Shown here: positions 3,349-43,349 of the stretch, one piece after another
Numbering within the stretch: position 1 is the stretch's first letter
How the letters are laid out: each line of letters opens with the position of its first letter
Assembly: GCA_964405095.1 (NCBI GenBank)
Contig: CAYOML010000001.1
Location: 23,311 to 87,310 of the forward strand
Source of the DNA: an uncultured Candidatus Saccharibacteria bacterium
GTDB taxonomy: Bacteria; Patescibacteriota; Saccharimonadia; Saccharimonadales; EFPC-124
Direction of reading: 5' to 3'
Length of the DNA: 64,000 nucleotides
Made by a program: the position numbers and the translations under genes
The notes under the pieces: model-generated
Seen by the model: only the letters and a program-made list of their open reading frames with translations
Databases searched by the model: none
Told to the model about the DNA's origin: nothing

Positions 3349-3380
3349 AACAAAAAAGACTTCCGAAGAAGTCTTTTAAG
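3349..3380 (-). terminator. intrinsic terminator hairpin aaaagacttccgaagaagtctttt plus T-run on the minus strand, downstream of the NYN gene
   Basis: perfect 9-bp stem; minus-strand reading is followed by ttttgttatg. Confidence 0.5.
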
Positions 3381-7268: not shown

Positions 7269-8486
7269 ATGCAAGACAAATTAAAAAGTCGTATTCAAGC
7301 ACTCGAAGACAAATACGATAATTTGCTTCACCTGACCGCCAACGAGAATATCATCTCGCCCCTCGCCAAAAGGGCACTTAATTCAACATTGTCTAACCGT
7401 TACAGTATGACCAACAACAACGGGTCGTCTGTTGCCACCTTTGGACGAAATGCGGCCTACAAGAGCCTACTCGAAGTTGACGACTTATACGCCGAGGCTA
7501 CTGCGGCCTTAAATCAGATCCTCCACGCCGAATATTCCACGTTGCGCTGCCTAACCGGCGCCCATGCCATGGCCTGCGTCCTGCTGACAACGACTCAGCC
7601 GGGTGACACTGTTATGACCGTCCCATCCAAGCAAGGCGGGCACTTTTGTACCACTGGTATTCTGGATCTGACCGGCAGAAAGCACGTAGAGACTGTTTAT
7701 GATCCTGATAGTTTAACCTTCGACGCTAAAAAAACCGCCAAAGTCTGCAAGCAAAATAATGTCCGCGTCATCTACCTCGACACATCGGTCTATCTTAAAC
7801 CACACCCCATTAAAGAGTTGCGCGAACTTGTTGGCCCAGACGTACTAATCGTGTACGATGCCAGCCACACCGTAGGTCTGATGATGGGCGGTCAATTCCA
7901 GAGCCCATTGCAAGAAGGCGCCGACATTATTTCGGCCAATAGCCACAAAACCCTACCCGGACCTCACAAAGCAGTGGTCGCGTTTAAAGACCGTGATTTA
8001 GGCGAACGCTTCGAAAAAGAGATCCTCAAGAGCTTTGTATCGAGCACCCACACTAATTCGCTGCTTAGCCTGATTGTGACTATCTTTGAAATGCAAGAGT
8101 TTGGCCGCGATTATGCACAGCAAGTCATTAAGAACGCGCAGGCCCTTGGTGAATATTTGGCTGCCGAAGGTTTAGAAGTGCGCCGCGCTGATGCCGACCA
8201 CATTACCTACAATCACCAGGTACATTTGTACTCACCGCTGGGCCGCACAGAGACAGTTGAAGCATTTTTAGCCAGCAACATCAGCCTTGGTACCAGTGGC
8301 GCATTGGGCGACCGTCTGTTTATTAGGCTCGGCACCCAAGAGATTACGCGCCGCGGCTACAAAGAACTGGACATACAGCACATTGCCCAGATTATTGCAG
8401 CTGTGTTATCGGGCAAAGATGCAGCACAAAATGTTAAGCAATTACTAACCAGTCACACAAAAATCTTATACGGATATAGCGCATAA
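7269..8486 (+). CDS. serine hydroxymethyltransferase-family PLP enzyme with a divergent active site
   Basis: clear homology blocks to GlyA (LTANENIISP vs LIASENYTSP; QPGDTV; SHKTLPGP vs THKTLAGP carrying the PLP lysine; ITRRGYKE), but the Tyr/Arg-rich YAEGYPGKRYYGG block is replaced and the Arg after the PLP lysine is His. Confidence 0.75.
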   Translation: MQDKLKSRIQALEDKYDNLLHLTANENIISPLAKRALNSTLSNRYSMTNNNGSSVATFGRNAAYKSLLEVDDLYAEATAALNQILHAEYSTLRCLTGAHAMACVLLTTTQPGDTVMTVPSKQGGHFCTTGILDLTGRKHVETVYDPDSLTFDAKKTAKVCKQNNVRVIYLDTSVYLKPHPIKELRELVGPDVLIVYDASHTVGLMMGGQFQSPLQEGADIISANSHKTLPGPHKAVVAFKDRDLGERFEKEILKSFVSSTHTNSLLSLIVTIFEMQEFGRDYAQQVIKNAQALGEYLAAEGLEVRRADADHITYNHQVHLYSPLGRTETVEAFLASNISLGTSGALGDRLFIRLGTQEITRRGYKELDIQHIAQIIAAVLSGKDAAQNVKQLLTSHTKILYGYSA

Positions 8487-9760
8487 TGAACAAGGCTCAA
8501 CTACACACCGATTCTTACACCGATTTTCGGTATTATCTAGATAACGTGTATTCACAAAAAACCGAGCAACAGGTTCTGGGGCTCTCGGTTGGTTATCCAA
8601 CATCAGGCCAATTCCCGCTGCCGAACGAGATCCTGGAGCAGCTTGTCCCATTCGAAGATGGCCAAGAAAAGCCACGGCCAGGTTACGGTTGGGAAGCCGG
8701 TTCCCAGACGGTTCGTGAGGCTATTCTTGAGTACGAGAATCTGGCCCACGGCACCAGATACACCATGAAGAACGTCTGCATTGTCGCCGGCGCTACTTAC
8801 GGCCTAAACCGCATCCTGGAATATATGTTTACCGACCCATTGTTCGACAAAAGCAAAGACGAATTACTTGTGGCCGCACCGACATTTTACCGTATGTTGG
8901 GCCGTGTTGAGAGTTACGCCAAAGTCGTAAATGTCACCGGCCAAGAAGACAATAACTTCCAGGTAACAGTTGATGATATTCTTGCCGGCTTAACTCCGCG
9001 CACCAAAGCCGTCTTTTTGCTTAACCCCAGCAACCCAACTTACTTGTATTACCCCAATGATTTTCTTGCCGAGTTGGTTGCCAAGCTCAGCGAGCGCCAG
9101 GTATACCTGATAATCGACGAATCTGGCGACGCCTATGTGAACGATGGTCACAACAATCATAGCTATCACCGCATGACCCTGGCTCTTCAGAACCCGTACG
9201 TCATCCGCATAGTAACCGCATCTAAGAAATATCTACTGGCCGAATATCGAATTGGTTACGTGCTTGCTGGCGAAGACGTCATTGGTACCAAATTGCACGG
9301 TTTTATAAAGTTGATCGGCGATGACATGAGCAACCCGCCGCTTGCTGCCAACGATGCCTGGCTGGCTTTGTTGCAACACGAAATACTCCTGTTGCAAAAC
9401 AAACCATGTCCAAACACCGGTTGTGATTTTGCCGAAAAGTTCCGTGATGCAACCGCCAAGATGTCACGGCTGCGCGAATTGACGCTTAATGCCCTGGCTC
9501 ACACCGATCATATCCGTCGCGTCATCATGCCGGACGCTAACTACAACCTGTGTTTTGCATTTGATTCCAGCAAGGACTACGATGACATTCAGGTGTTCGA
9601 CGAAATGCTGCAAAAACATAACCTGGCACTTGTGCCCGGTTCGGGCTTTGGCATCGACAAAAAACTCCTGTACTTCCGCCTGACATTCGCCATTCGGGAA
9701 ACCGAGCTGCGCGAAGGCCTGGCGGCTCTGCAAGCCTTTAGTAAAAGTGGGTATTTATAA
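8486..9760 (+). CDS. class I/II (fold-type I) PLP-dependent aminotransferase
   Basis: LLNPSNPT and TASKKY (PLP lysine) motifs; length about 420 aa. Confidence 0.8.
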   Translation: MNKAQLHTDSYTDFRYYLDNVYSQKTEQQVLGLSVGYPTSGQFPLPNEILEQLVPFEDGQEKPRPGYGWEAGSQTVREAILEYENLAHGTRYTMKNVCIVAGATYGLNRILEYMFTDPLFDKSKDELLVAAPTFYRMLGRVESYAKVVNVTGQEDNNFQVTVDDILAGLTPRTKAVFLLNPSNPTYLYYPNDFLAELVAKLSERQVYLIIDESGDAYVNDGHNNHSYHRMTLALQNPYVIRIVTASKKYLLAEYRIGYVLAGEDVIGTKLHGFIKLIGDDMSNPPLAANDAWLALLQHEILLLQNKPCPNTGCDFAEKFRDATAKMSRLRELTLNALAHTDHIRRVIMPDANYNLCFAFDSSKDYDDIQVFDEMLQKHNLALVPGSGFGIDKKLLYFRLTFAIRETELREGLAALQAFSKSGYL

Positions 9761-9772
9761 AGGGTAATAACT

Positions 9773-10384
9773 ATGAATACAGCCTCAACCATTCTTGAAA
9801 CATCTCTAGGCGCTTTTAAATTGTCGTACCATTCACTTGGCGACATGCAAGCCGTCAGCATGTCGATTGGCGATATTACCAGCGGCACACCGCTGTTGCG
9901 TATCCATTCTTCCTGTCTATTCAGCGAAGCGTTGTGCGCCGTCGACTGCGACTGTAAACTACAGCTGGACAGCGCTCTGGAGTACATCAAAAAAGCCGGC
10001 AAAGGCGTTATTGTGTATCTGTACCAAGAGGGCAGGGGTGTCGGCCTCGAAAACAAGATCCGCGCCGTCGAAATAATGCGCGTCGATAACTGCGACACGG
10101 CCACGGCCTTCGAAAAGCTAGGTTTCGAGCTCGACCCACGCGACTATAGTCTGGCTATCAAGGCACTTAAAGATTTACACGTTTCTAAAGACGTCCTTTT
10201 GATGTCTAATAACCCGCGCAAATTCAATGCACTAGAAACAGCCGGGTATGACGTAGTTGAGCAAGTTGTGCTGTCGTACTACGCTAATCCGACTGTTCAT
10301 CATTACTTACGCTCCAAAGAAGCCAAACTTGGCCACAAGATACAGTGGAGCGCAATTAAGACAACTACCCGGCGAGTGTCTTAA
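9773..10384 (+). CDS. GTP cyclohydrolase II (RibA-like), stand-alone
   Basis: RIHSSCLFSEALCAVDCDC zinc-binding cysteines, YLYQEGRGVGL and SNNPRK blocks as in RibA; no ribB/ribD/ribH/ribE adjacent. Confidence 0.8.
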   Translation: MNTASTILETSLGAFKLSYHSLGDMQAVSMSIGDITSGTPLLRIHSSCLFSEALCAVDCDCKLQLDSALEYIKKAGKGVIVYLYQEGRGVGLENKIRAVEIMRVDNCDTATAFEKLGFELDPRDYSLAIKALKDLHVSKDVLLMSNNPRKFNALETAGYDVVEQVVLSYYANPTVHHYLRSKEAKLGHKIQWSAIKTTTRRVS

Positions 10385-16033: not shown

Positions 16034-17008
16034 ATGAGTGAGTATGAAACCGATGGGATTGAGCCGACACTGGAGCAGTTGCTGAAGTGGCGCCCTACTA
16101 GACGCAAACTTATCAAACTTGGCCTGCTCACTGCTGTTGCCGCAGATACAGCAGGCGGCTTCGCTGTCGAGCGGGGAATGAATCACCACCCCGAGGCTGA
16201 CGTATACCTGAACCCTGATAGCGACCAAACAATTATTATTGGCGGTGGCTGGGCCAATGATGGCCGAGTACTAGGCGAGATGCTAGCGCCGGTACTAGGT
16301 GACTTTGCTAACATCATCGCTATAAAATACGCCGACGATAATGTCGACTCAACCGAACTTCACAATTTAGTTTTTAGTACAATGCGCGAAAATGGTTTGC
16401 GTAACCCTTCGTGGTATCTAAATTCGTCGGCCGGTTTATTCTTGGCCGGATCCATGGCGCTGCACGCTCACGACCCCGCTAGCCAGCAAGAGTTTGGCCC
16501 GACTCAGATAGCCGTGTTTCATGACTCGCCGCACAGCGAGGCCGATTTAAACAACCAAGGTTGGTTTTTCGCTAATACTCGCGCCGATGCACTACTAAAA
16601 CGCAGTCGAGTATTTAACTGGCTATTTGGACTCGGCATGCGCGCCACACTTAGAGGCGCCGATTTCCGCGACCCAGCCTATGTAAGTTACGCCGACGCCC
16701 AAGCTATGAAAGACGGCATGGCGGCTGCCGACTCAATCACGGCTAGCGCTCAAATGGCCGGGATGCGCGATATAAACCTGCCAGACGGTTATTTGCATGG
16801 TGCAGCTCGGCGCTTTTTCTTCGTGCATAGTGAAGGCGAATCAAATGATACTAACGACTCTGCCAGCGCTTTGCGAGGCTGGCGCGGCACCTGTGGAGAG
16901 GTCGAAGAAATTATCGACCCTTACGCTCCAGCCAACAAACATGCTCCCAGCACATACCCGCATATCTTGCGCACTATCTTTTACACCAACCTTACTGAGC
17001 GATCTTAG
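16034..17008 (+). CDS. hypothetical protein with twin-arginine-like signal (TRRKLIKLGLLTAVAA); possible secreted alpha/beta-fold protein
   Basis: RR motif followed by a hydrophobic stretch; leaderless extended -10 (TGtTATAAT) 8 nt upstream. Confidence 0.4.
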   Translation: MSEYETDGIEPTLEQLLKWRPTRRKLIKLGLLTAVAADTAGGFAVERGMNHHPEADVYLNPDSDQTIIIGGGWANDGRVLGEMLAPVLGDFANIIAIKYADDNVDSTELHNLVFSTMRENGLRNPSWYLNSSAGLFLAGSMALHAHDPASQQEFGPTQIAVFHDSPHSEADLNNQGWFFANTRADALLKRSRVFNWLFGLGMRATLRGADFRDPAYVSYADAQAMKDGMAAADSITASAQMAGMRDINLPDGYLHGAARRFFFVHSEGESNDTNDSASALRGWRGTCGEVEEIIDPYAPANKHAPSTYPHILRTIFYTNLTERS

Positions 17009-17727
17009 TAGTTTTCCGGATCGTACTGATTGTGCACTTCGAGTATTGGTATTCGGTCTTCGGTAATATCTTTCTTATCATGAAATCGATCGGCGCTGCC
17101 TGCAAAGCTCAACTCCTGGCTAGCATACTCTTCTTGAGTCATCCAAGCGTTACGACCGCCCTCAAACTCTTCTACTAATATGCCATGCGGGTTATTGGCC
17201 GTTACAACAAAGAAGATTTTATCTTCCAATAGTTCGCCGGTTTGCTTGTTGAAATCTGTTTTGTGATAAATAGCTTCGTAAGCAAGATCGGCTTTCAGAC
17301 CCGTTTCTTCTGCAAGTTCGCGTGCTGCAGCGTCCAGTATAGATTCGCCCCAGCGGATCTTGCCAGTGGGGCGGCCCCAGTAGCCATAATATGGCTGTTT
17401 AAGGCGCTGCTGTACAAGTTGCTTGCCGTCTTTGCGGCGGACCATTAAGCAAACTGCAACTTTGGGCTGGCGTTCAACTTGGCGGGCATCGGTGTCAAAG
17501 CGGTTAGCGAATTCTTTGCCCTTAAAGGTTAAATGATACGCACCTTCTTTGTTTTTGCCCACAAAATCTTCTTCTAACAACTGTTTCAGATAAAAAGAGA
17601 AGTGGTCACTGGTTAATTCACTAGCTTTTTGCAGCTCCTTAAAGCGAGCATTGGGCTTAAACAGCAATACTTGCAGTATCGCCACGTGTGCTGGGTGGAG
17701 TTGTTTGTCGATTGCCATATAGGTCAC
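17005..17727 (-). CDS. winged-helix DNA-binding domain fused to a Nudix hydrolase domain
   Basis: Nudix box GKIRWGESILDAAARELAEETGL (Gx5Ex7REUxEExGU); N-terminal wHTH-like region; paralog of the 17780..18493 gene. Confidence 0.7.
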   Translation of the reverse strand: MTYMAIDKQLHPAHVAILQVLLFKPNARFKELQKASELTSDHFSFYLKQLLEEDFVGKNKEGAYHLTFKGKEFANRFDTDARQVERQPKVAVCLMVRRKDGKQLVQQRLKQPYYGYWGRPTGKIRWGESILDAAARELAEETGLKADLAYEAIYHKTDFNKQTGELLEDKIFFVVTANNPHGILVEEFEGGRNAWMTQEEYASQELSFAGSADRFHDKKDITEDRIPILEVHNQYDPENY

Positions 17728-17779: not shown

Positions 17780-18493
17780 TTAGAACTGCTCGGCCGAGTA
17801 TTCGACGCTGTTCTCTAAAAAGGTATGGTCGCGGCCCAGCATGTCCTGCTCGATCTGCTGGCTAGTGTATTTTTTGTCGCGTGCGGCAATCTCGGCCTCG
17901 GTGGCCCAAAAGTTGCGACCACCCTCAAACGCGTCCATTAGTGTGCCGCGCGGCCTGGTGCAATGCACAACATGGAACAGCTTGTCTTCGAGTAATTCGC
18001 CGGATTCTTTTTGGTAGGCGTGTTCATGGTAAAGGCCTGCGTAGCGATAATCGGCCTCGAGGCCCGTTTCTTCATGCAGTTCACGCTCGGCGGCGGCGAT
18101 CACCGTCTCACCCCAGCGTATTTTGCCGGATGGAAAGCCCCAAAACCCAAAGTAGGGATGCTTCATGCGCTCTTGAATAAGATAGTACTTGATGCCCGAT
18201 TTGATCTTTTCGATGCCCAAGATTACGGCGCTCTTGGGCTGTTTTTCGATGGTGTTGTTATCGGTGTCTAGCTTGTTAGCATACTCCTTACCACGCGGAG
18301 TTAGACGGTATTTGCCTCGAGCCACTTTTTCGACTAAGTCTAGCGCAACCAGTTTAGCAATATGAAAGTTGAAGTGGTCACTACTCAGGCCTGTTGGTTT
18401 TTGTAGCTCGGCGTAGCCGGCTTGCGGCCTAAACAGCAATTCGCGCAGGATCGAGGTTTGGGCCCCGTGGATGTTAACTTCCAGGCTCATCAT
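17780..18493 (-). CDS. winged-helix DNA-binding domain fused to a Nudix hydrolase domain (paralog)
   Basis: Nudix box GKIRWGETVIAAAERELHEETGL; same architecture as the 17005..17727 gene. Confidence 0.7.
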   Translation of the reverse strand: MMSLEVNIHGAQTSILRELLFRPQAGYAELQKPTGLSSDHFNFHIAKLVALDLVEKVARGKYRLTPRGKEYANKLDTDNNTIEKQPKSAVILGIEKIKSGIKYYLIQERMKHPYFGFWGFPSGKIRWGETVIAAAERELHEETGLEADYRYAGLYHEHAYQKESGELLEDKLFHVVHCTRPRGTLMDAFEGGRNFWATEAEIAARDKKYTSQQIEQDMLGRDHTFLENSVEYSAEQF

Positions 18494-18563
18494 AATATCC
18501 TCATGTTATCTGACGGACACTATAACGTCGAGCGTATGATTAAATCTAGTAAAGTCGACTTTA

Positions 18564-18715
18564 GTTAACCTGATTCTAAAAACCTAATACTCATGGCCGG
18601 GTCCTGCCGAGCGGTCCGCCCCTAGTTTATATTTTTGGAATACCAAAGATAAAACCTGGGGCCGCCCCGCCGCTCGTCACCCCTTTAGTTATTTGGTTTT
18701 TAGAATCAAGTTAAC
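18564..18715. repeat. nested palindromic element, copy A (outer AT-rich IR, middle GC-rich IR, inner AT-rich IR)
   Basis: outer IR gttaacctgattctaaaaacc / ggtttttagaatcaagttaac; middle gggtcctgccgagcggtccgcccc / ggggccgccccgccgctcgtcacccc; homologous copies at 36263-36398 and 37455-37593. Confidence 0.7.
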
Positions 18716-19193
18716 TAGCCTTGATCCTGCTATAAGAATAATCTTTAGTCTTATGCCAAGTTCGACTCTGTGGGTCATAGGCCCGGACCTCGCCCTTGAT
18801 CTTGGCAATACGCACCAGGGCAGGGTTATATGGGGCAAGGTTTCTGTAGTAGCGCAGGTCATCATCTGACGTAATGTGCTTACCTGGGAACATGGCTTTA
18901 AACTTTTCACCACCGACACGATTAAAATAATCGGTTTCGCCATTTGGCGGCAAAAACTGGTCGGCTTCCAGGTTCATACGCATAACAATTTTCTGCACAT
19001 CATCGAGTAGCTGCGCCGCCTGAGATGCCACATAAAGCAAAACCTGCCCAGTAGTCGTTTTAAACAATGTGCCCTGGGCAGTAATCCCCACCGGTGCACT
19101 ACGAACAATCACCTCGGCAATATCTAGCACCACACCGAATTTTTCCTGGGCTGATTTTTCTATGGCTATATCACCAAAGATCTCGTCATTCAT
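18711..19193 (-). CDS. hypothetical protein
   Basis: ORF track only; its stop codon lies within the outer IR of repeat copy A. Confidence 0.4.
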   Translation of the reverse strand: MNDEIFGDIAIEKSAQEKFGVVLDIAEVIVRSAPVGITAQGTLFKTTTGQVLLYVASQAAQLLDDVQKIVMRMNLEADQFLPPNGETDYFNRVGGEKFKAMFPGKHITSDDDLRYYRNLAPYNPALVRIAKIKGEVRAYDPQSRTWHKTKDYSYSRIKAS

Positions 19194-24756: not shown

Positions 24757-24791
24757 GTTTCCATGGGTACTCCAAGAGTACCCATGGAAAC
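24757..24791. other. perfect 16-bp inverted repeat with a 3-nt loop (gtttccatgggtactc caa gagtacccatggaaac) between convergent genes; candidate bidirectional terminator or protein-binding site
   Basis: arms 24757-24772 and 24776-24791 are exact reverse complements. Confidence 0.5.
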
Positions 24792-24823: not shown

Positions 24824-25248
24824 CTAGACGCGACGACGACGATGCTTGAGTTCGGCAACTTTAAGTCGGACTGCTTGGCGATCAATCATACCTTCGGCGC
24901 GAGCAAGTTCTACTTGGTCTTTGGCATTTTGTTTTAGTTCCTTGGCGCGGTCTAGTGCGGCGCGGGCATCGGCTTCGACAATCTCATCTTCGCGGTCGGC
25001 TTCGTCAACCAAGAGGCGGATGGTTTTGCCAGTAATCTCGGCTACGCCACCGTTAGTTGCAAAGATATCTAGATGTTCGTCGGTATCAGTTTTTTTGTGG
25101 CGTACGGTTATCACACCGGGGATCACCGTAGTAACCAATGGCATATGCTGATAATAAACCGCGATTTCGCCGTCGGCAGTTGGCAAGATTACCTCGTAGA
25201 CATCGGCTTGCAGTTTAGGACCAGTCAGTGTGACGAGCTCGAGCTTCA

Positions 25249-25249
<1 letters not shown>
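24824..25249 (-). CDS. atpC: F0F1 ATP synthase subunit epsilon
   Basis: position after atpD; N-terminal beta-sandwich then helical hairpin; 141 aa. Confidence 0.85.
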
Positions 25250-35139: not shown

Positions 35140-36246
35140 GTGGCAAAAAAGACAAACACTAAAAAAATCTCCTTGCACCGGCGCTTGTTGCAGCGTTTAC
35201 GCTCGCGGCATTTTATGCCTATGTATGAATTCTGGCTCGAACACCGCTGGTGGCGTTGGACAGCGCGTATTATGCTGGTGTTAGCCGGCTTTACATTCAC
35301 TGCTCTTCTTTTTAACGTTTTTGTGTTCACGCCAATAAAGGATCCTGACTATGGGGTCAGTTTTTCGCAAAAACGATCCGAGGAGTTGGGGCTTAACTGG
35401 CACCAAAATTTCACTGCTTTACTCGACGACTTACAAATTAAACGCTACCGGCTAATGAGTTACTGGGATCTCATCGAGGCCAATCGCGGGACCTTTGATT
35501 TTAAGGATTTGGACTGGCAGATGGATCAAGCCGCAGCACACGGCGCCAAAGTTTCACTCTCGATTGGTGTGCGTGTCCCGCGCTGGCCGGAATGTCACGA
35601 GCCTGGTTGGGCTAAACAGATGGGTGGCCACAGCTGGAAACAGGCCCTGTACGCCTATATGCAAGTGGTGGTTGATCGATACAAACATCATCCAGCTTTA
35701 GATACATGGCAGCTGGAAAATGAAGGCCTAAATACCTGGTTTGGAACCTGTAGCCCACCGGATAACGAAAGACTCCACGAGGAACTAGGTTTAATGAAGC
35801 GCTGGGATCCCGATCATAAAGTTATCATGAGTCTCAGCGATCAACACACTTACCCGGTAGAGGCGCCTGTACCCGATGTTTACGGCTTTTCGGTTTATCG
35901 TATTGTTTGGAACGACAAAATTCCGCCGGCCGGTTACATTTATTACCCAACACCTATCTGGTACCACCGCCTACGAGCTTTAATCATAAATCTTGTTTGG
36001 CAGCGACCAGTTATGATCCACGAGTTGCAGATGGAGCCGTGGGGGCGAGTCGATACGCGTTTTATGAGTATCGAGGAACAAAACAAGTCGATGAGCCTTG
36101 AGCAGATTCCTAAGGTTTTCCAGTTTGCCAGACAGTTGGGCATTAAACGGATCGATTTGTGGGGCGGGGAGTGGTGGTATTGGCGTAAGGTTCATGGCGA
36201 CGGAAGTATTTGGCAGGCGGTACGGGAGCAGTTGAGTGCACCTTAG
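35140..36246 (+). CDS. membrane-anchored putative glycoside hydrolase (TIM-barrel, clan GH-A-like)
   Basis: N-terminal TM; WQLENEG candidate acid/base Glu block; aromatic-rich barrel-like sequence; family assignment uncertain. Confidence 0.45.
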   Translation: MAKKTNTKKISLHRRLLQRLRSRHFMPMYEFWLEHRWWRWTARIMLVLAGFTFTALLFNVFVFTPIKDPDYGVSFSQKRSEELGLNWHQNFTALLDDLQIKRYRLMSYWDLIEANRGTFDFKDLDWQMDQAAAHGAKVSLSIGVRVPRWPECHEPGWAKQMGGHSWKQALYAYMQVVVDRYKHHPALDTWQLENEGLNTWFGTCSPPDNERLHEELGLMKRWDPDHKVIMSLSDQHTYPVEAPVPDVYGFSVYRIVWNDKIPPAGYIYYPTPIWYHRLRALIINLVWQRPVMIHELQMEPWGRVDTRFMSIEEQNKSMSLEQIPKVFQFARQLGIKRIDLWGGEWWYWRKVHGDGSIWQAVREQLSAP

Positions 36247-36262
36247 ATATTATTGAAAGTAT

Positions 36263-36398
36263 AGGCATAGAATTCTAATACATATGGCCGGGTCCTGCCG
36301 CCCGGTCCGCCCCTAAAGATTTTTTTATGGAAATACATAAAAAAACTTTGGGGCAGCCCCGCCAGGCGTCACCCCTTGAATAATTGAATTCTATGCCT
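36263..36398. repeat. nested palindromic element, copy B
   Basis: outer IR aggcatagaattctaata / taattgaattctatgcct; middle gggtcctgccgcccggtccgcccc / ggggcagccccgccaggcgtcacccc; centre ggaaatac. Confidence 0.7.
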
Positions 36399-37428
36399 TT
36401 ATTTTCAGCACAACTCGATAGGCTTCGACAAGTTTTTGCCCGCCGGCCTTACTATCGAATCGTGCAGCCATACCGTGCGCTTTAGAAACTGCTCCGACAT
36501 AAAAATTGGCATCGCTAATTAAGTGCGATAATAATGTCACAAATGTTTCGTCGGTACCACGCACAACATCTTCACCAAATGTATCGTTGTATTCGGGTAT
36601 GTCGCGCACGACAATCGGCAGCCCGGTACCGGCGGCTTCGAGCACCGCCATCGGATGATTTTCTTGTTCAGACGGCAGAAAAAACACATCTGATACTTGT
36701 AAGTATTGCTTAACATCATCGTGCCCGATGACCCCTGTCACCAAGACGTTGGCCGGCTTGGTATCAACTAGGTGCTGTTGATTTTGGTAGTCAGCTCCCA
36801 AACGCTTAAAGGTGATGCCACCGATCCATATAAACTGGCTATTGGGCAAAGCTTTTGCGGCTTCGCAGAACAAATCGAACCGCTTGCGAGGTTGGATTTG
36901 GCCGTTGCCAACGACCACTTTTTTATCTGGTTCGATGCCGAGTTTCTTACGCGCTGCTTGCTTGTCGACAGCCAATGTGACAAACAGCGACATATCAACT
37001 GTATTGTAAAGAACGATGACAGGTTTTTTGATTTTTAGCTGTTCATGAAGAGTAGTTTCGACCATTTTAGAAACCGCGAGCAACAGATCGGCGTGTCCAT
37101 AAAACAGCCGCATGTACCATTTGGCTAGGCCATAAAAATATTTTGCACCGGCGATCGAGCCAACCAAAGAATCCGGCACGACGTGCACCGAAATGACTTT
37201 TTTGCCTGAACCGAATAACAAATGCAACAAACTATATGGGCCGAAGGTTTGTATATGAGTGATATCAGCCCGACGGCGGAATTTATTAACCACCACATCT
37301 GTGTCATCACGCGCTTGTAGCGCATTGGTCATCTCGACAAAAGCTGTGTGCACGCCGTGTGCCTGAACAGTAAATGCGCTTTCTGATACCATATTGATTT
37401 TGATTTTTTGTTGCATTAATGAGTTCAT
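36391..37428 (-). CDS. glycosyltransferase family 4 (GT-B fold)
   Basis: LEAAGTGLPIVVRD block typical of the GT4 C-terminal domain. Confidence 0.75.
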   Translation of the reverse strand: MNSLMQQKIKINMVSESAFTVQAHGVHTAFVEMTNALQARDDTDVVVNKFRRRADITHIQTFGPYSLLHLLFGSGKKVISVHVVPDSLVGSIAGAKYFYGLAKWYMRLFYGHADLLLAVSKMVETTLHEQLKIKKPVIVLYNTVDMSLFVTLAVDKQAARKKLGIEPDKKVVVGNGQIQPRKRFDLFCEAAKALPNSQFIWIGGITFKRLGADYQNQQHLVDTKPANVLVTGVIGHDDVKQYLQVSDVFFLPSEQENHPMAVLEAAGTGLPIVVRDIPEYNDTFGEDVVRGTDETFVTLLSHLISDANFYVGAVSKAHGMAARFDSKAGGQKLVEAYRVVLKIKA

Positions 37429-37454
37429 TGTAGCAAACGAGGATAATTTCAGAT

Positions 37455-37593
37455 TGAACTCATTTCAAAACCATAAGGAAGGGGTCCTGTCACGCAGTTT
37501 GCCCCTAAAATATTTTTCTGAAAATACAGAAAAAGTATTTTGGGGCGGCCCCACTGCGCGCCACCCCATTTAATTAAGTTTTGAAATGGGTTC
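37455..37593. repeat. nested palindromic element, copy C
   Basis: outer IR gaactcatttcaaaacc / gttttgaaatgggttc; middle ggggtcctgtcacgcagtttgcccc / ggggcggccccactgcgcgccacccc; centre gaaaatac. Confidence 0.7.
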
Positions 37594-37620
37594 ATTAAGT
37601 TATACTTAACAGAGAGCAAT

Positions 37621-38097
37621 ATGGCCAAGAAGAAAACTACCAACTCACTGATTCAAAACCGCCGCGCCCGTTACGATTACGAACTACGCGATGAATTCAA
37701 TGTAGGCATTGCTTTGACAGGCCAAGAAGTCAAGGCTGCTAGATCGGGGCAGGTGAGTTTGAAAGGCGCTTACGTGACATTAAAAGACGGGGAGGTATGG
37801 CTAACCAACGCGTCGTTCTCGGTTATTCATACTGAGCCGGGTAAATCTAGTCGTAGCATCGAGACCGGGCCGCGCAAACTTTTGGCCAAAAAGAAAGAAA
37901 TTGCCGTGTTACAGGCTGTGAAGGATCAGGGCCTAACTATAGTGCCACTTAGCATGACCACTCGTACTAGGTTCATTAAGCTCAAAATTGCCACAGCCAA
38001 GGGTAAAAAACAATACGATAAGCGCGAAACTATTAAGCGCAAGGATATCCAGCGCGAGCAGCAGCGCACTAGAGCCTCAGTTGGCAAGGTCTTGTAA
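37621..38097 (+). CDS. smpB: SsrA-binding protein SmpB
   Basis: 158 aa; conserved N-terminal RRARYDYELRDEF..GIAL.G.EVK core. Confidence 0.9.
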   Translation: MAKKKTTNSLIQNRRARYDYELRDEFNVGIALTGQEVKAARSGQVSLKGAYVTLKDGEVWLTNASFSVIHTEPGKSSRSIETGPRKLLAKKKEIAVLQAVKDQGLTIVPLSMTTRTRFIKLKIATAKGKKQYDKRETIKRKDIQREQQRTRASVGKVL

Positions 38098-43118: not shown

Positions 43119-43225
43119 TCCTCTCGTTCGGCTTTGAAGCCTCTACTCAAGCGTAAAGTAGGATTCCATGAACTGCCGACAGGCAGTTCATGCCCTATCG
43201 GGTTCAAGCCCTACTTATCTACGCA
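43119..43225. ncRNA. unassigned highly structured region (11-bp perfect hairpin catgaactgcc-gaca-ggcagttcatg nested inside a longer stem gcgtaaagtagg / cctacttatctacgc, plus hairpin ggctttgaagcc)
   Basis: self-complementarity seen directly in the sequence; the plus-strand track ORF 43134..43379 overlaps this region and the tRNA and is rejected. Confidence 0.3.
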
Positions 43226-43232
43226 AAAGAAA

Positions 43233-43262
43233 ATATCCCTCACGAGGGAGGGATATTTTCTT
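43233..43262 (-). terminator. intrinsic terminator hairpin atatccctc-acgagg-gagggatat flanked by T/A runs, immediately 3' of tRNA-Leu
   Basis: 9-bp stem, then tttctttt on the minus strand. Confidence 0.55.
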
Positions 43263-43263
43263 T

Positions 43264-43349
43264 TGGTGGGCAAGGAGGGACTTGAACCCTCACGACCTTG
43301 CGGCCACTGGATTTTGAGTCCAGCGCGTCTACCATTCCGCCACTCGCCC
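43264..43349 (-). tRNA. tRNA-Leu (anticodon CAA), class II with long variable arm
   Basis: reverse complement GGGCGAGTGGCGGAATGGTAGACGCGCTGGACTCAAAATCCAG..GGTTCAAGTCC..CCCACCA; anticodon loop CTCAAAA. Confidence 0.85.

Follow-up and report, generated by a model that had tools for sequence, protein, structure and literature searches.

Nested palindromes in the window

The stretch of DNA considered here (the window: 64,000 nucleotides (nt) of contig CAYOML010000001.1 from an uncultured Candidatus Saccharibacteria bacterium) contains three copies of a nested palindrome, all on the plus strand and all intergenic: copy A (18562-18717), copy B (36254-36407), and copy C (37455-37594). Copy A belongs to a widespread family of non-autonomous repeats, small and non-coding, in which the conserved unit is only an inner imperfect hairpin of ~91 nt (the core, comprising the middle and inner layers of the palindrome); with moderate confidence, this core is taken to be a mobile module recognized as a folded single strand.

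Each copy displays the three layers proposed in an earlier note on this DNA, namely an outer inverted repeat rich in AT, a middle stem rich in GC (GGGTCCTG...GCCCC paired with GGGGCNGCCCC...G(Y)CACCC(C)), and, innermost, a further AT-rich hairpin whose loop reads GGAATACC, GGAAATAC, or GAAAATAC. The outer arms, given in that note as 18-21 base pairs (bp), required correction to 28 nt in copy A and 27 nt in copy B (36254-36280 and 36381-36407, 85% complementary); those of copy C are 17 nt long (37455-37471 and 37578-37594). That the copies exceed chance is borne out by a gapped core pattern, which matched three times in the window and not once in 100 shuffles, and by thermodynamic folding, wherein copies A, B, and C reach -60 to -64 kcal/mol on either strand (z -5.9 to -8.2), values equaled by none of 200 shuffles. 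An origin by chance or by simple, recent duplication in place, for which only the small copy number in the window speaks, is given a negligible probability in light of the shuffles, the strong folding scores, the existence of more than 100 family members in other genomes, and the divergence of the window cores (79% identity between A and B, 66% between A and C, and 73% between B and C).

A covariance model of the core (R1) recovered only these three copies from the window, with no fourth found even when the search filters were off; the family was extended to other genomes by pattern scans. As the copies score 81-85 bits on the plus strand versus 14-18 bits on the minus strand, the hairpin element is strongly strand-asymmetric.

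Copy A as a whole (RNA minimum free energy -61.9 kcal/mol, z -7.9) is bounded by arms that are 93% complementary. The left arm (18562-18589, TAGTTAACCTGATTCTAAAAACCTAATA) has the family arm motif AACCTGAnTCTnAAAACC and is homologous to the left flanks of loci L159, L161, and L123, and the right arm spans 18690-18717. Between them lies the core (18596-18686), which scores 84.2 bits with R1 (E 1.5e-19, plus strand only) and begins with the motif GGGTCCTG (18599-18606), wherein GGGT pairs with ACCC at 18679-18682, CCT forms a bulge, and G pairs with C18678; this motif is invariant in 79 of 79 sequences. The 5' strand of an 8-bp variable stem (CGAGCGGT, 18608-18615) follows, paired with 18669-18676, and then a GCCCC...GGGGC clamp (18618-18662) enclosing the AT-rich apical hairpin, the stem pairs of which covary and the loop of which (GGAATACC) lies at approximately 18637-18644. 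The invariant internal loop NGCCCC (18663-18668, unpaired in the model) makes up the 3' side together with the second strand of the variable stem and the G-T-CACCCC behind it (18669-18683). The cores of copies B (36287-36378) and C (37479-37570) score 81.5 and 84.8 bits, respectively.

Copy A is situated between a minus-strand open reading frame (ORF; 18711-19193), the stop codon of which (18711-18713) falls within the right arm, and a minus-strand NUDIX gene starting at 18493. This context agrees with the earlier note, which placed copy A in the 5' region of a wHTH-Nudix gene pair and over the stop codon of the upstream minus-strand gene; the two NUDIX genes directly downstream are tandem paralogs on the minus strand (17780-18493 and 17005-17727), and a winged-helix domain exceeds the Pfam cut-off only in the one at 17005-17727, the second from copy A. 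Copy B is located between a GH42-like gene (35140-36246, plus strand) and a convergent glycosyltransferase gene (36391-37428, minus strand), and its right arm holds the stop and last five codons of the latter. Copy C is flanked by the divergent starts of the same glycosyltransferase gene (37428, minus strand) and smpB (37621, plus strand).

The interval between these two starts (37428-37621) measures 192 nt and is filled by copy C. Relatives (L120 at 8350-10001, and a pair of JGI contigs) have an additional gene or two, encoding 187-227 amino acids, between smpB and the glycosyltransferase gene, which suggests a deletion or rearrangement at the copy C element.

A conserved core in two phyla

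The core has a fixed order of parts. Its basal (C)G-GGGU/ACCC pairing is followed by the CCU bulge, a G-C pair, a pyrimidine-pyrimidine (Y-Y) mismatch, and the 8-bp stem of free sequence; next come one or two unpaired nt on the 5' side opposite the invariant 3' NGCCCC, the GCCCC/GGGGC clamp, an apical domain of free length, and, at the 3' end, the partner of the variable stem and then G-Y-CACCC. The mismatch is T-C in 50, C-T in 31, and T-T in 9 of 104 cases. In Saccharibacteria, the apical domain forms an AT-rich hairpin that carries a bulged C and a loop of GATTAC, GAGTAC, or GAATAC; that of Acidobacteria is larger and GC-rich, with no conservation of the loop.

When species-representative genomes were scanned with a pattern, the core was located at 12 loci of metagenome-assembled Saccharibacteria genomes, as well as in a high-copy, GC-rich element of Vicinamibacterales (Acidobacteriota) and in one Krumholzibacteriia contig, many of these matches lying at contig ends; a Saccharibacteria-specific pattern added 45 further metagenome loci. 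The window copies are closer to copies of other organisms than to one another: the core of copy A is 94% identical to that of a metagenome locus (L138), and the core of copy C is 81% identical to cores of the metagenome-assembled genome CullarsAll.DT.39 (L056), versus 66% identity between A and C. The three copies in the window are old and fall into different subfamilies.

At eight loci, the core is accompanied by a second conserved, rod-like hairpin element, which follows directly and occupies ~260 nt after the core at L127, L129, L142, and L144 and ~180-200 nt after it at L147, L149, L164, and L156. These elements (~200-260 nt, z about -9) are of two unrelated types and have no Rfam match. 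For the L149 type, complementarity exists between the far 3' end (GGATGGATAGGACCCG) and the 5' CGGGTCCTGTCGTCC of the core, 'bulge' nucleotides included; the whole unit of ~275 bp therefore has its own terminal inverted repeats.

Covariation in the stems

The variable block of the middle stem differs between the window copies on both sides (GAGCGG/CCGCTC in A, GCCCGG/CCAGGC in B, and ACGCAG/CTGCGC in C), in agreement with the earlier note, and the proposal made there that pairing is preserved through sequence change was upheld with a larger sample. In a gap-free alignment (A3) of 79 distinct basal-stem sequences, prepared by replacing the apical domain with GAAA and removing the short 5' loop, 92.2% of cells are paired, versus 79.3±0.6% in shuffles and 35.5-49.2% when partners are slid out of register. 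Cells with both sides changed number 246, versus 76±7 in shuffles (none of 500 reached 246) and 12-63 with slid partners, and the covariation score is 0.360, versus 0.121 in shuffles and 0.03-0.08 with slid partners. Over the 79 sequences, seven of the nine pairs of the variable helix (helix 2) change on both sides and show several Watson-Crick types. When RNAalifold was applied to 39 full Saccharibacteria cores, 13 of 25 pairs exhibited double-sided changes, including pairs of the apical stem. In the family alignments, the unpaired CCU, the Y-Y mismatch, and NGCCCC were without variation. The maintenance of stem pairing by compensatory change is thus statistically supported.

Evidence for mobility

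Multiple observations argue for movement of the core. Four copies were seen in CullarsAll.DT.39, with near-identical cores at unrelated sites (98% identity between L056 and L032), and the cores of the WNGR loci L122 and L126 are 1 nt apart within different flanks. Assemblies break at the element: in Vicinamibacterales SMAG_U9489, one and the same element is present in, or terminates, more than 20 contigs, the window's own strain has a Logan contig (L119) that stops inside copy A at position 18658, and an identical glycosyltransferase gene is found on a contig of 1.2 kb, a size close to that of the gene flanked by copies B and C. L120, at 77% amino-acid identity the closest relative that could be used, has neither element nor spacer at the copy B site, its GH42-like and glycosyltransferase genes adjoining each other directly; among relatives of the window glycosyltransferase, none with usable DNA exceeded 82% identity.

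Vicinamibacterales copies possess conserved terminal inverted repeats of 20-25 bp (GAGTGCGTTGCAAAA...) and, in seven of ten cases, identical 3-nt TWA flanks, which have the appearance of a classical target-site duplication. Copy A has TAG on either side of TTAAC...GTTAAC, and no target duplication was found at copies B or C or at the CullarsAll copies. The earlier note had reasoned from selection on structure that the element was not a recently transposed miniature inverted-repeat transposable element (MITE); this opposition proved false, given the near-identical cores at unrelated sites, the TWA duplications, the assembly breaks, and the empty copy B site.

The SMAG_U9489 MITE is a high-copy element of ~150 bp with GAGTGCGTTGCAAAATTAGCTC terminal repeats and a TWA target duplication, and it often lies at contig ends (L005, L018, L036-L040, L049, L058, L059, L068, L074, L085, L114, L115, and L118, with tandem or inverted pairs at L038 and L074). 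In other Acidobacteria, the same core is embedded within MITEs of different terminal repeats (GAGACGGTTTCATAACCTC; TCACTTGAGTTGA). Two loci of metagenome Ga0164242 (L143 and L157) have an identical left flank and core and diverge 17 nt past the core, which looks like an assembly-graph branch at a repeat.

Heterogeneous outer arms

The outer arms are heterogeneous rather than a constant third layer. At 54 distinct Saccharibacteria sites, flank complementarity was significant at 19 (p≤0.01) and absent at 28 (p>0.05). One kind of arm is conserved in the family, with the motif (T)TCAAAACC and, further out, AACCTGAnTCTCAAAACC, and occurs in copies A and C, L025, L123, L159, L161, L003, and others. 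Another kind is site-specific, 10-37 bp in length, often perfect, and unrelated between near-identical cores (L056, L032, L060, and L097 of CullarsAll; L122, L126, L150, and L151), such that identical cores can be found elsewhere with wholly unrelated arms of 27-37 bp. Between core and arm lie conserved element termini (e.g., GAAGG...AGTGTTTA) and 0-7 site-specific nucleotides. Accordingly, the statement in the earlier note that the outer arms differ while each copy stays self-complementary holds for copies A and C, the differences between which (TTCTAAAAACC versus TTTCAAAACC) are present on both arms, and fails as a description of one homologous layer evolving by compensation, as identical cores bear unrelated arms and 28 of the 54 sites have none.

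The longest and most perfect arms belong to the youngest copies, and the arms therefore exist at or before insertion and do not grow slowly afterwards. Two origins can be envisaged. First, the core could insert at the tip of a pre-existing palindrome, which would account for cores central in unrelated MITEs and finds potential targets in the unique, perfect hairpins of 13-17 bp with loops of 3-8 nt that occur in the same genomes (e.g., at 24757-24791 of the window); nevertheless, the filled arms are longer than the empty hairpins, and copy C sits between divergent genes. Second, one flank could be copied in inverted form at insertion, via fold-back or template switching.

The hairpin at 24757-24791 is a perfect 16-bp stem (GTTTCCATGGGTACTC-CAA-GAGTACCCATGGAAAC) followed by an A-run, and it lies between convergent genes, just upstream of the stop of a minus-strand ORF (24824-25249). 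The related loci L032 (2653-2682), L060 (2048-2083), and L097 (4461-4502 and 6911-6942) harbor comparable hairpins, also unique, perfect, and 13-17 bp long.

Another reading takes the element to be an ordinary double-stranded-DNA MITE, wherein the arms would be terminal inverted repeats for a DDE transposase of the IS5/Harbinger kind and the core would be internal filler or cargo, retained for some unrelated reason. The terminal repeats and TWA flanks of the Vicinamibacterales copies, the TAG on both sides of copy A, and the (T)TCAAAACC motif common to the arms of A, C, L025, L123, and L159 are all as this reading would have them. Binding by a transposase, however, predicts conserved ends and a free interior, and the reverse was found, with terminal repeats wholly different between lineages around a conserved core. 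Conservation of the terminal repeats between copies is seen in Vicinamibacterales, partly in the (T)TCAAAACC family, and not at all in CullarsAll, L122/L126, L150, or L151; the four CullarsAll.DT.39 copies combine near-identical cores with unrelated arms and no target duplication, a duplication is likewise missing from copies B and C, over half of the Saccharibacteria sites (28 of 54) are devoid of significant arms, and no autonomous partner was encountered among the genes next to copies (8-kb loci). An ordinary MITE is considered somewhat improbable as an explanation.

RNA or DNA

Covariation in two helices, combined with bulges and loops that do not vary, is what a structured RNA classically shows, and the core might thus have a host function within neighboring mRNAs or as a small RNA, in protein binding, processing, stabilization, or termination, its multiplicity being secondary. 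The strong strand asymmetry, the retention of the core across phyla while arms differ, the T-run that follows several copies of the GGGG...CCCC subfamily (e.g., CACCCCATTTTT in L025, L126, and L151), and the U-G pair that closes the variable stem in 28 of 79 sequences can all be cited for this proposal. The wobble pairs are nevertheless uninformative as to the functional strand: a mid-stem C-A mismatch (G-U on the opposite strand) is about as common (~22-25 sequences), and in both classes a single position of one subfamily accounts for most cases.

Outside the unit of ~100 nt, no conserved sequence or promoter was found, the flanks being unrelated between copies. With respect to the genes on either side, copies lie in a mixture of convergent (12), antisense tandem (10), divergent (7), and sense tandem (6) contexts, and promoter and terminator scans gave totals near shuffle levels, with the elements not called as terminators. 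An intrinsic terminator, for which a short GC-rich hairpin with a T-run behind a gene in sense orientation would be expected, was thus rejected as an identity, the hairpin being ~90-150 nt, uncalled by the scan, mixed in orientation, and, at copy C, placed between divergent starts. As the earlier note had supposed, the element corresponds to no described RNA family: none of the 4227 families of Rfam 15 gave a match at gathering score, the window and 24 related loci yielding only tRNAs, and searches with copies A, B, and C and two composite elements at E-values up to 10 returned only sub-threshold chance matches to miRNAs and snoRNAs. A literature search likewise found no description of the motif strings or of Saccharibacteria or Acidobacteria palindromic repeats of this kind. 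Signal recognition particle RNA, transfer-messenger RNA (copy C adjoins smpB), hepatitis delta virus-like and twister ribozymes, the K-turn, and the 38-bp inverted repeats of Tn3 type were discarded for mismatches in conserved motifs or topology, with Rfam and ARAGORN searches also empty.

Taken together, the mixed orientation, the lack of flank conservation, the silent scans, and the Rfam result speak against both a small-RNA gene complete in itself and a cis element akin to a riboswitch or terminator, and an RNA acting within read-through transcripts may be compatible with them. Given also the repeat-like behavior of the element, with copy numbers ranging from single to high between genomes and contigs breaking at it, and the excess of antisense over sense tandem contexts (10 versus 6), a host-functional RNA is judged unlikely as the primary explanation. 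The tests run leave both RNA and single-stranded DNA as forms in which the structure might act.

A further proposal is that the core is a DNA site for a nicking or recombination enzyme, such as an oriT-like nick site or a folded site resembling attC or the attP of CTX phage, in use by the host or by an integrative element and scattered over the chromosome. The nick consensus of MOBP relaxases is (C/T)ATCCTG(C/T), and in MOBP oriT regions an inverted repeat lies directly 5' of the core hexanucleotide ATCCTG (PMC3772185). The invariant GGGTCCTG-Y-C resembles this consensus, with the G|Y junction at the bulge and mismatch, and the combination of conserved extrahelical bases with a variable terminal structure recalls attC. 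A MOBP-type nick region was nonetheless rejected, given that only five of the six ATCCTG positions match (A being replaced by an invariant G to give GTCCTG in 79 of 79 sequences), that the pairing partner lies 3' of the motif, unlike the oriT arrangement, and that neither a relaxase nor an integrase was present among neighbor genes. The GTTRRRY (R'/R'') boxes of attC are absent, viral contigs gave no pattern-scan matches, and BLAST searches of plasmids gave only chance matches of 26-29 nt. The Saccharibacteria apical loops (GATTAC, GAGTAC, and GAATAC) recall Rep nick loops, but the apical loop is not conserved in Acidobacteria. A site of this class is accordingly regarded as quite improbable.

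A probable mobile hairpin module

The core appears to multiply within genomes and to have crossed phyla; this spread is visible in the copies themselves, and the mechanism behind it most likely runs as follows. One strand would fold, as DNA or as RNA, and a trans-acting protein would read the invariant unpaired nucleotides; the stems would need only to pair, which would give rise to the compensatory changes. The module lands in intergenic DNA beside gene ends and is typically central in a longer palindrome, composed of family-conserved arms, site-specific arms, or MITE terminal inverted repeats, and composites of core and arms could then spread as ordinary MITEs, as in Vicinamibacterales, whose composites have a TWA target duplication.

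A bolder version, offered only tentatively and thought unlikely, holds that the core represents a new class of structure-specific mobile module of at least Patescibacteria (Saccharibacteria) and Acidobacteriota. The folded strand would be recognized via the CCU bulge, the Y-Y mismatch, and NGCCCC by an enzyme, possibly a HUH-type nickase acting at TCCTG|Y, and the module would insert at, or generate, palindrome centers; this would explain both the identical cores with unrelated perfect arms of 27-37 bp and the cores amid unrelated MITE families.

Several points weigh against a mobile hairpin module. Core-less versions of the arm palindromes or arm families were not found in a sampling biased to core-containing loci, which makes apex insertion into pre-existing MITEs a hypothesis; no filled/empty pair was obtained at nucleotide resolution, L120 being too diverged (77% amino-acid identity) to reconstruct the junction; and a RecF-based empty-site comparison for a CullarsAll copy was uninformative (L166). 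Among the genes next to copies (8-kb loci, with neighbor clustering around 165 loci), no transposase, recombinase, or HUH endonuclease was found, and the only recurrent neighbors were generic ABC transporters and spurious high-GC ORFs; the element is therefore non-autonomous, and any mobilizing activity would be hypothetical. Copies show no preferred orientation with respect to local GC skew (negative in 23 of 50 and in 28 of 61), so that a single-stranded-DNA mechanism on the lagging strand, as in IS200/IS605, gains no support. As the search patterns required GGTCCTG, GCCCC, and GGGGCNGCCCC, the invariance of these strings is partly ascertainment; conserved, though not imposed by the first pattern, are the G that precedes GGTCCTG, the C at position 2 of the stem, the Y-Y mismatch, the spacing, and the CACCC on the 3' side. 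Lastly, a core kept across phyla inside MITEs whose terminal repeats are unrelated could just as well have a function for the host or as RNA.

Other repeats in the window

Two further repeats were noted in the window. At 43200-43289, an inverted repeat with 42-nt arms (76% complementary, 6-nt spacer) consists of the 3' part of tRNA-Leu(CAA) (43264-43349, minus strand) and a partial, inverted copy of it that ends in GGGTTCAAGCCC; an integration scar or the remnant of an attachment site is a possible interpretation. A short terminator-like palindrome (AAAAAGACTTCC-nnn-GAAGTCTTTT) occurs three times (51-73, 593-615, and 3353-3375) and is either a separate small repeat family or a conserved type of terminator.

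Significance

Saccharibacteria and other bacteria of the candidate phyla radiation have tiny genomes that are thought to hold few repeats. A multi-copy structured element common to Saccharibacteria and soil Acidobacteria would show a small hairpin module persisting and moving across phyla, and it would offer a concrete instance, open to testing, of selection acting on nucleic-acid structure within a mobile element, as opposed to the usual arrangement of transposase-bound ends and a free interior. In practical terms, the element breaks short-read assemblies of these genomes and supplies stop codons and C-terminal tails to adjoining genes; covariance model R1 can be used for its annotation.

Comparison with known systems

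In its presumed manner of working, the element is most like the repetitive extragenic palindromic (REP) sequences, their REPIN doublets, or attC-type sites, whose substrate is a folded strand bearing defined extrahelical bases. REPs and REPINs, which are mobilized by RAYT transposases (IS200/IS605-like Y1 enzymes), are likewise short, non-coding, intergenic, multi-copy, non-autonomous imperfect palindromes, often between convergent genes, for which a folded hairpin with conserved bulges matters. The window element, in contrast, has no GTAG/CGTC tag at its ends and is not a dimer of two REPs of 20-40 nt, its core halves not being self-palindromic, so that membership in the REP/REPIN class was rejected; moreover, its core of ~91 nt is kept across phyla, while each REP is tied to one species and that species' RAYT; the genes next to copies included no RAYT, and there is no replication-strand bias. 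Integron attC sites are comparable in recognition by structure, in strand-defining extrahelical bases, and in a variable terminal structure of free length. They differ in having R'/R'' boxes, a neighboring integrase, and a cassette array, none of which was observed here, and the unpaired parts of the present element are conserved in sequence; an attC identity (RYYYAAC/GTTRRRY) was therefore set aside, the GTTAAC ends of copy A failing GTTRRRY at position 6 and the other copies lacking even GTTAAC.

In appearance, the closest analogs are the long palindromic repeats of the ERIC (IRU) and Correia (NEMIS) type, with packaging as an IS5/Harbinger-style MITE in Acidobacteria. ERIC and Correia repeats are imperfect palindromes of ~100-150 bp in transcribed intergenic regions, with a conserved center and variable internal insertions, and they can supply stop codons or affect neighboring transcripts. 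Each is confined to one bacterial group, however, and is conserved in sequence over its full length, whereas only the core is conserved in the element studied here, the arms are interchangeable, and the stems covary. Terminal-inverted-repeat MITEs of the IS5 and PIF-Harbinger type, which make 3-bp TNA/TWA duplications, are matched by the Vicinamibacterales copies in terminal repeats, TWA flanks, high copy number, and assembly breaks, and by copy A in the TAG on both sides; they are not matched in that the terminal repeats here are unrelated between lineages around a conserved interior and that many Saccharibacteria copies have neither terminal repeats nor a duplication.

Palindromes are also targeted by elements that encode their own enzyme, including IS1397 and ISKpn1 in REP loops, IS110/IS1111 members in REP or attC sites, and group IIC introns at terminators. 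These elements offer a possible precedent for a core that is always central in a longer palindrome, although targeting of hairpin tips by the present element is something we infer. The combination of a cross-phylum, stem-covarying, strand-asymmetric core with interchangeable arms is unusual for a palindromic non-autonomous repeat.

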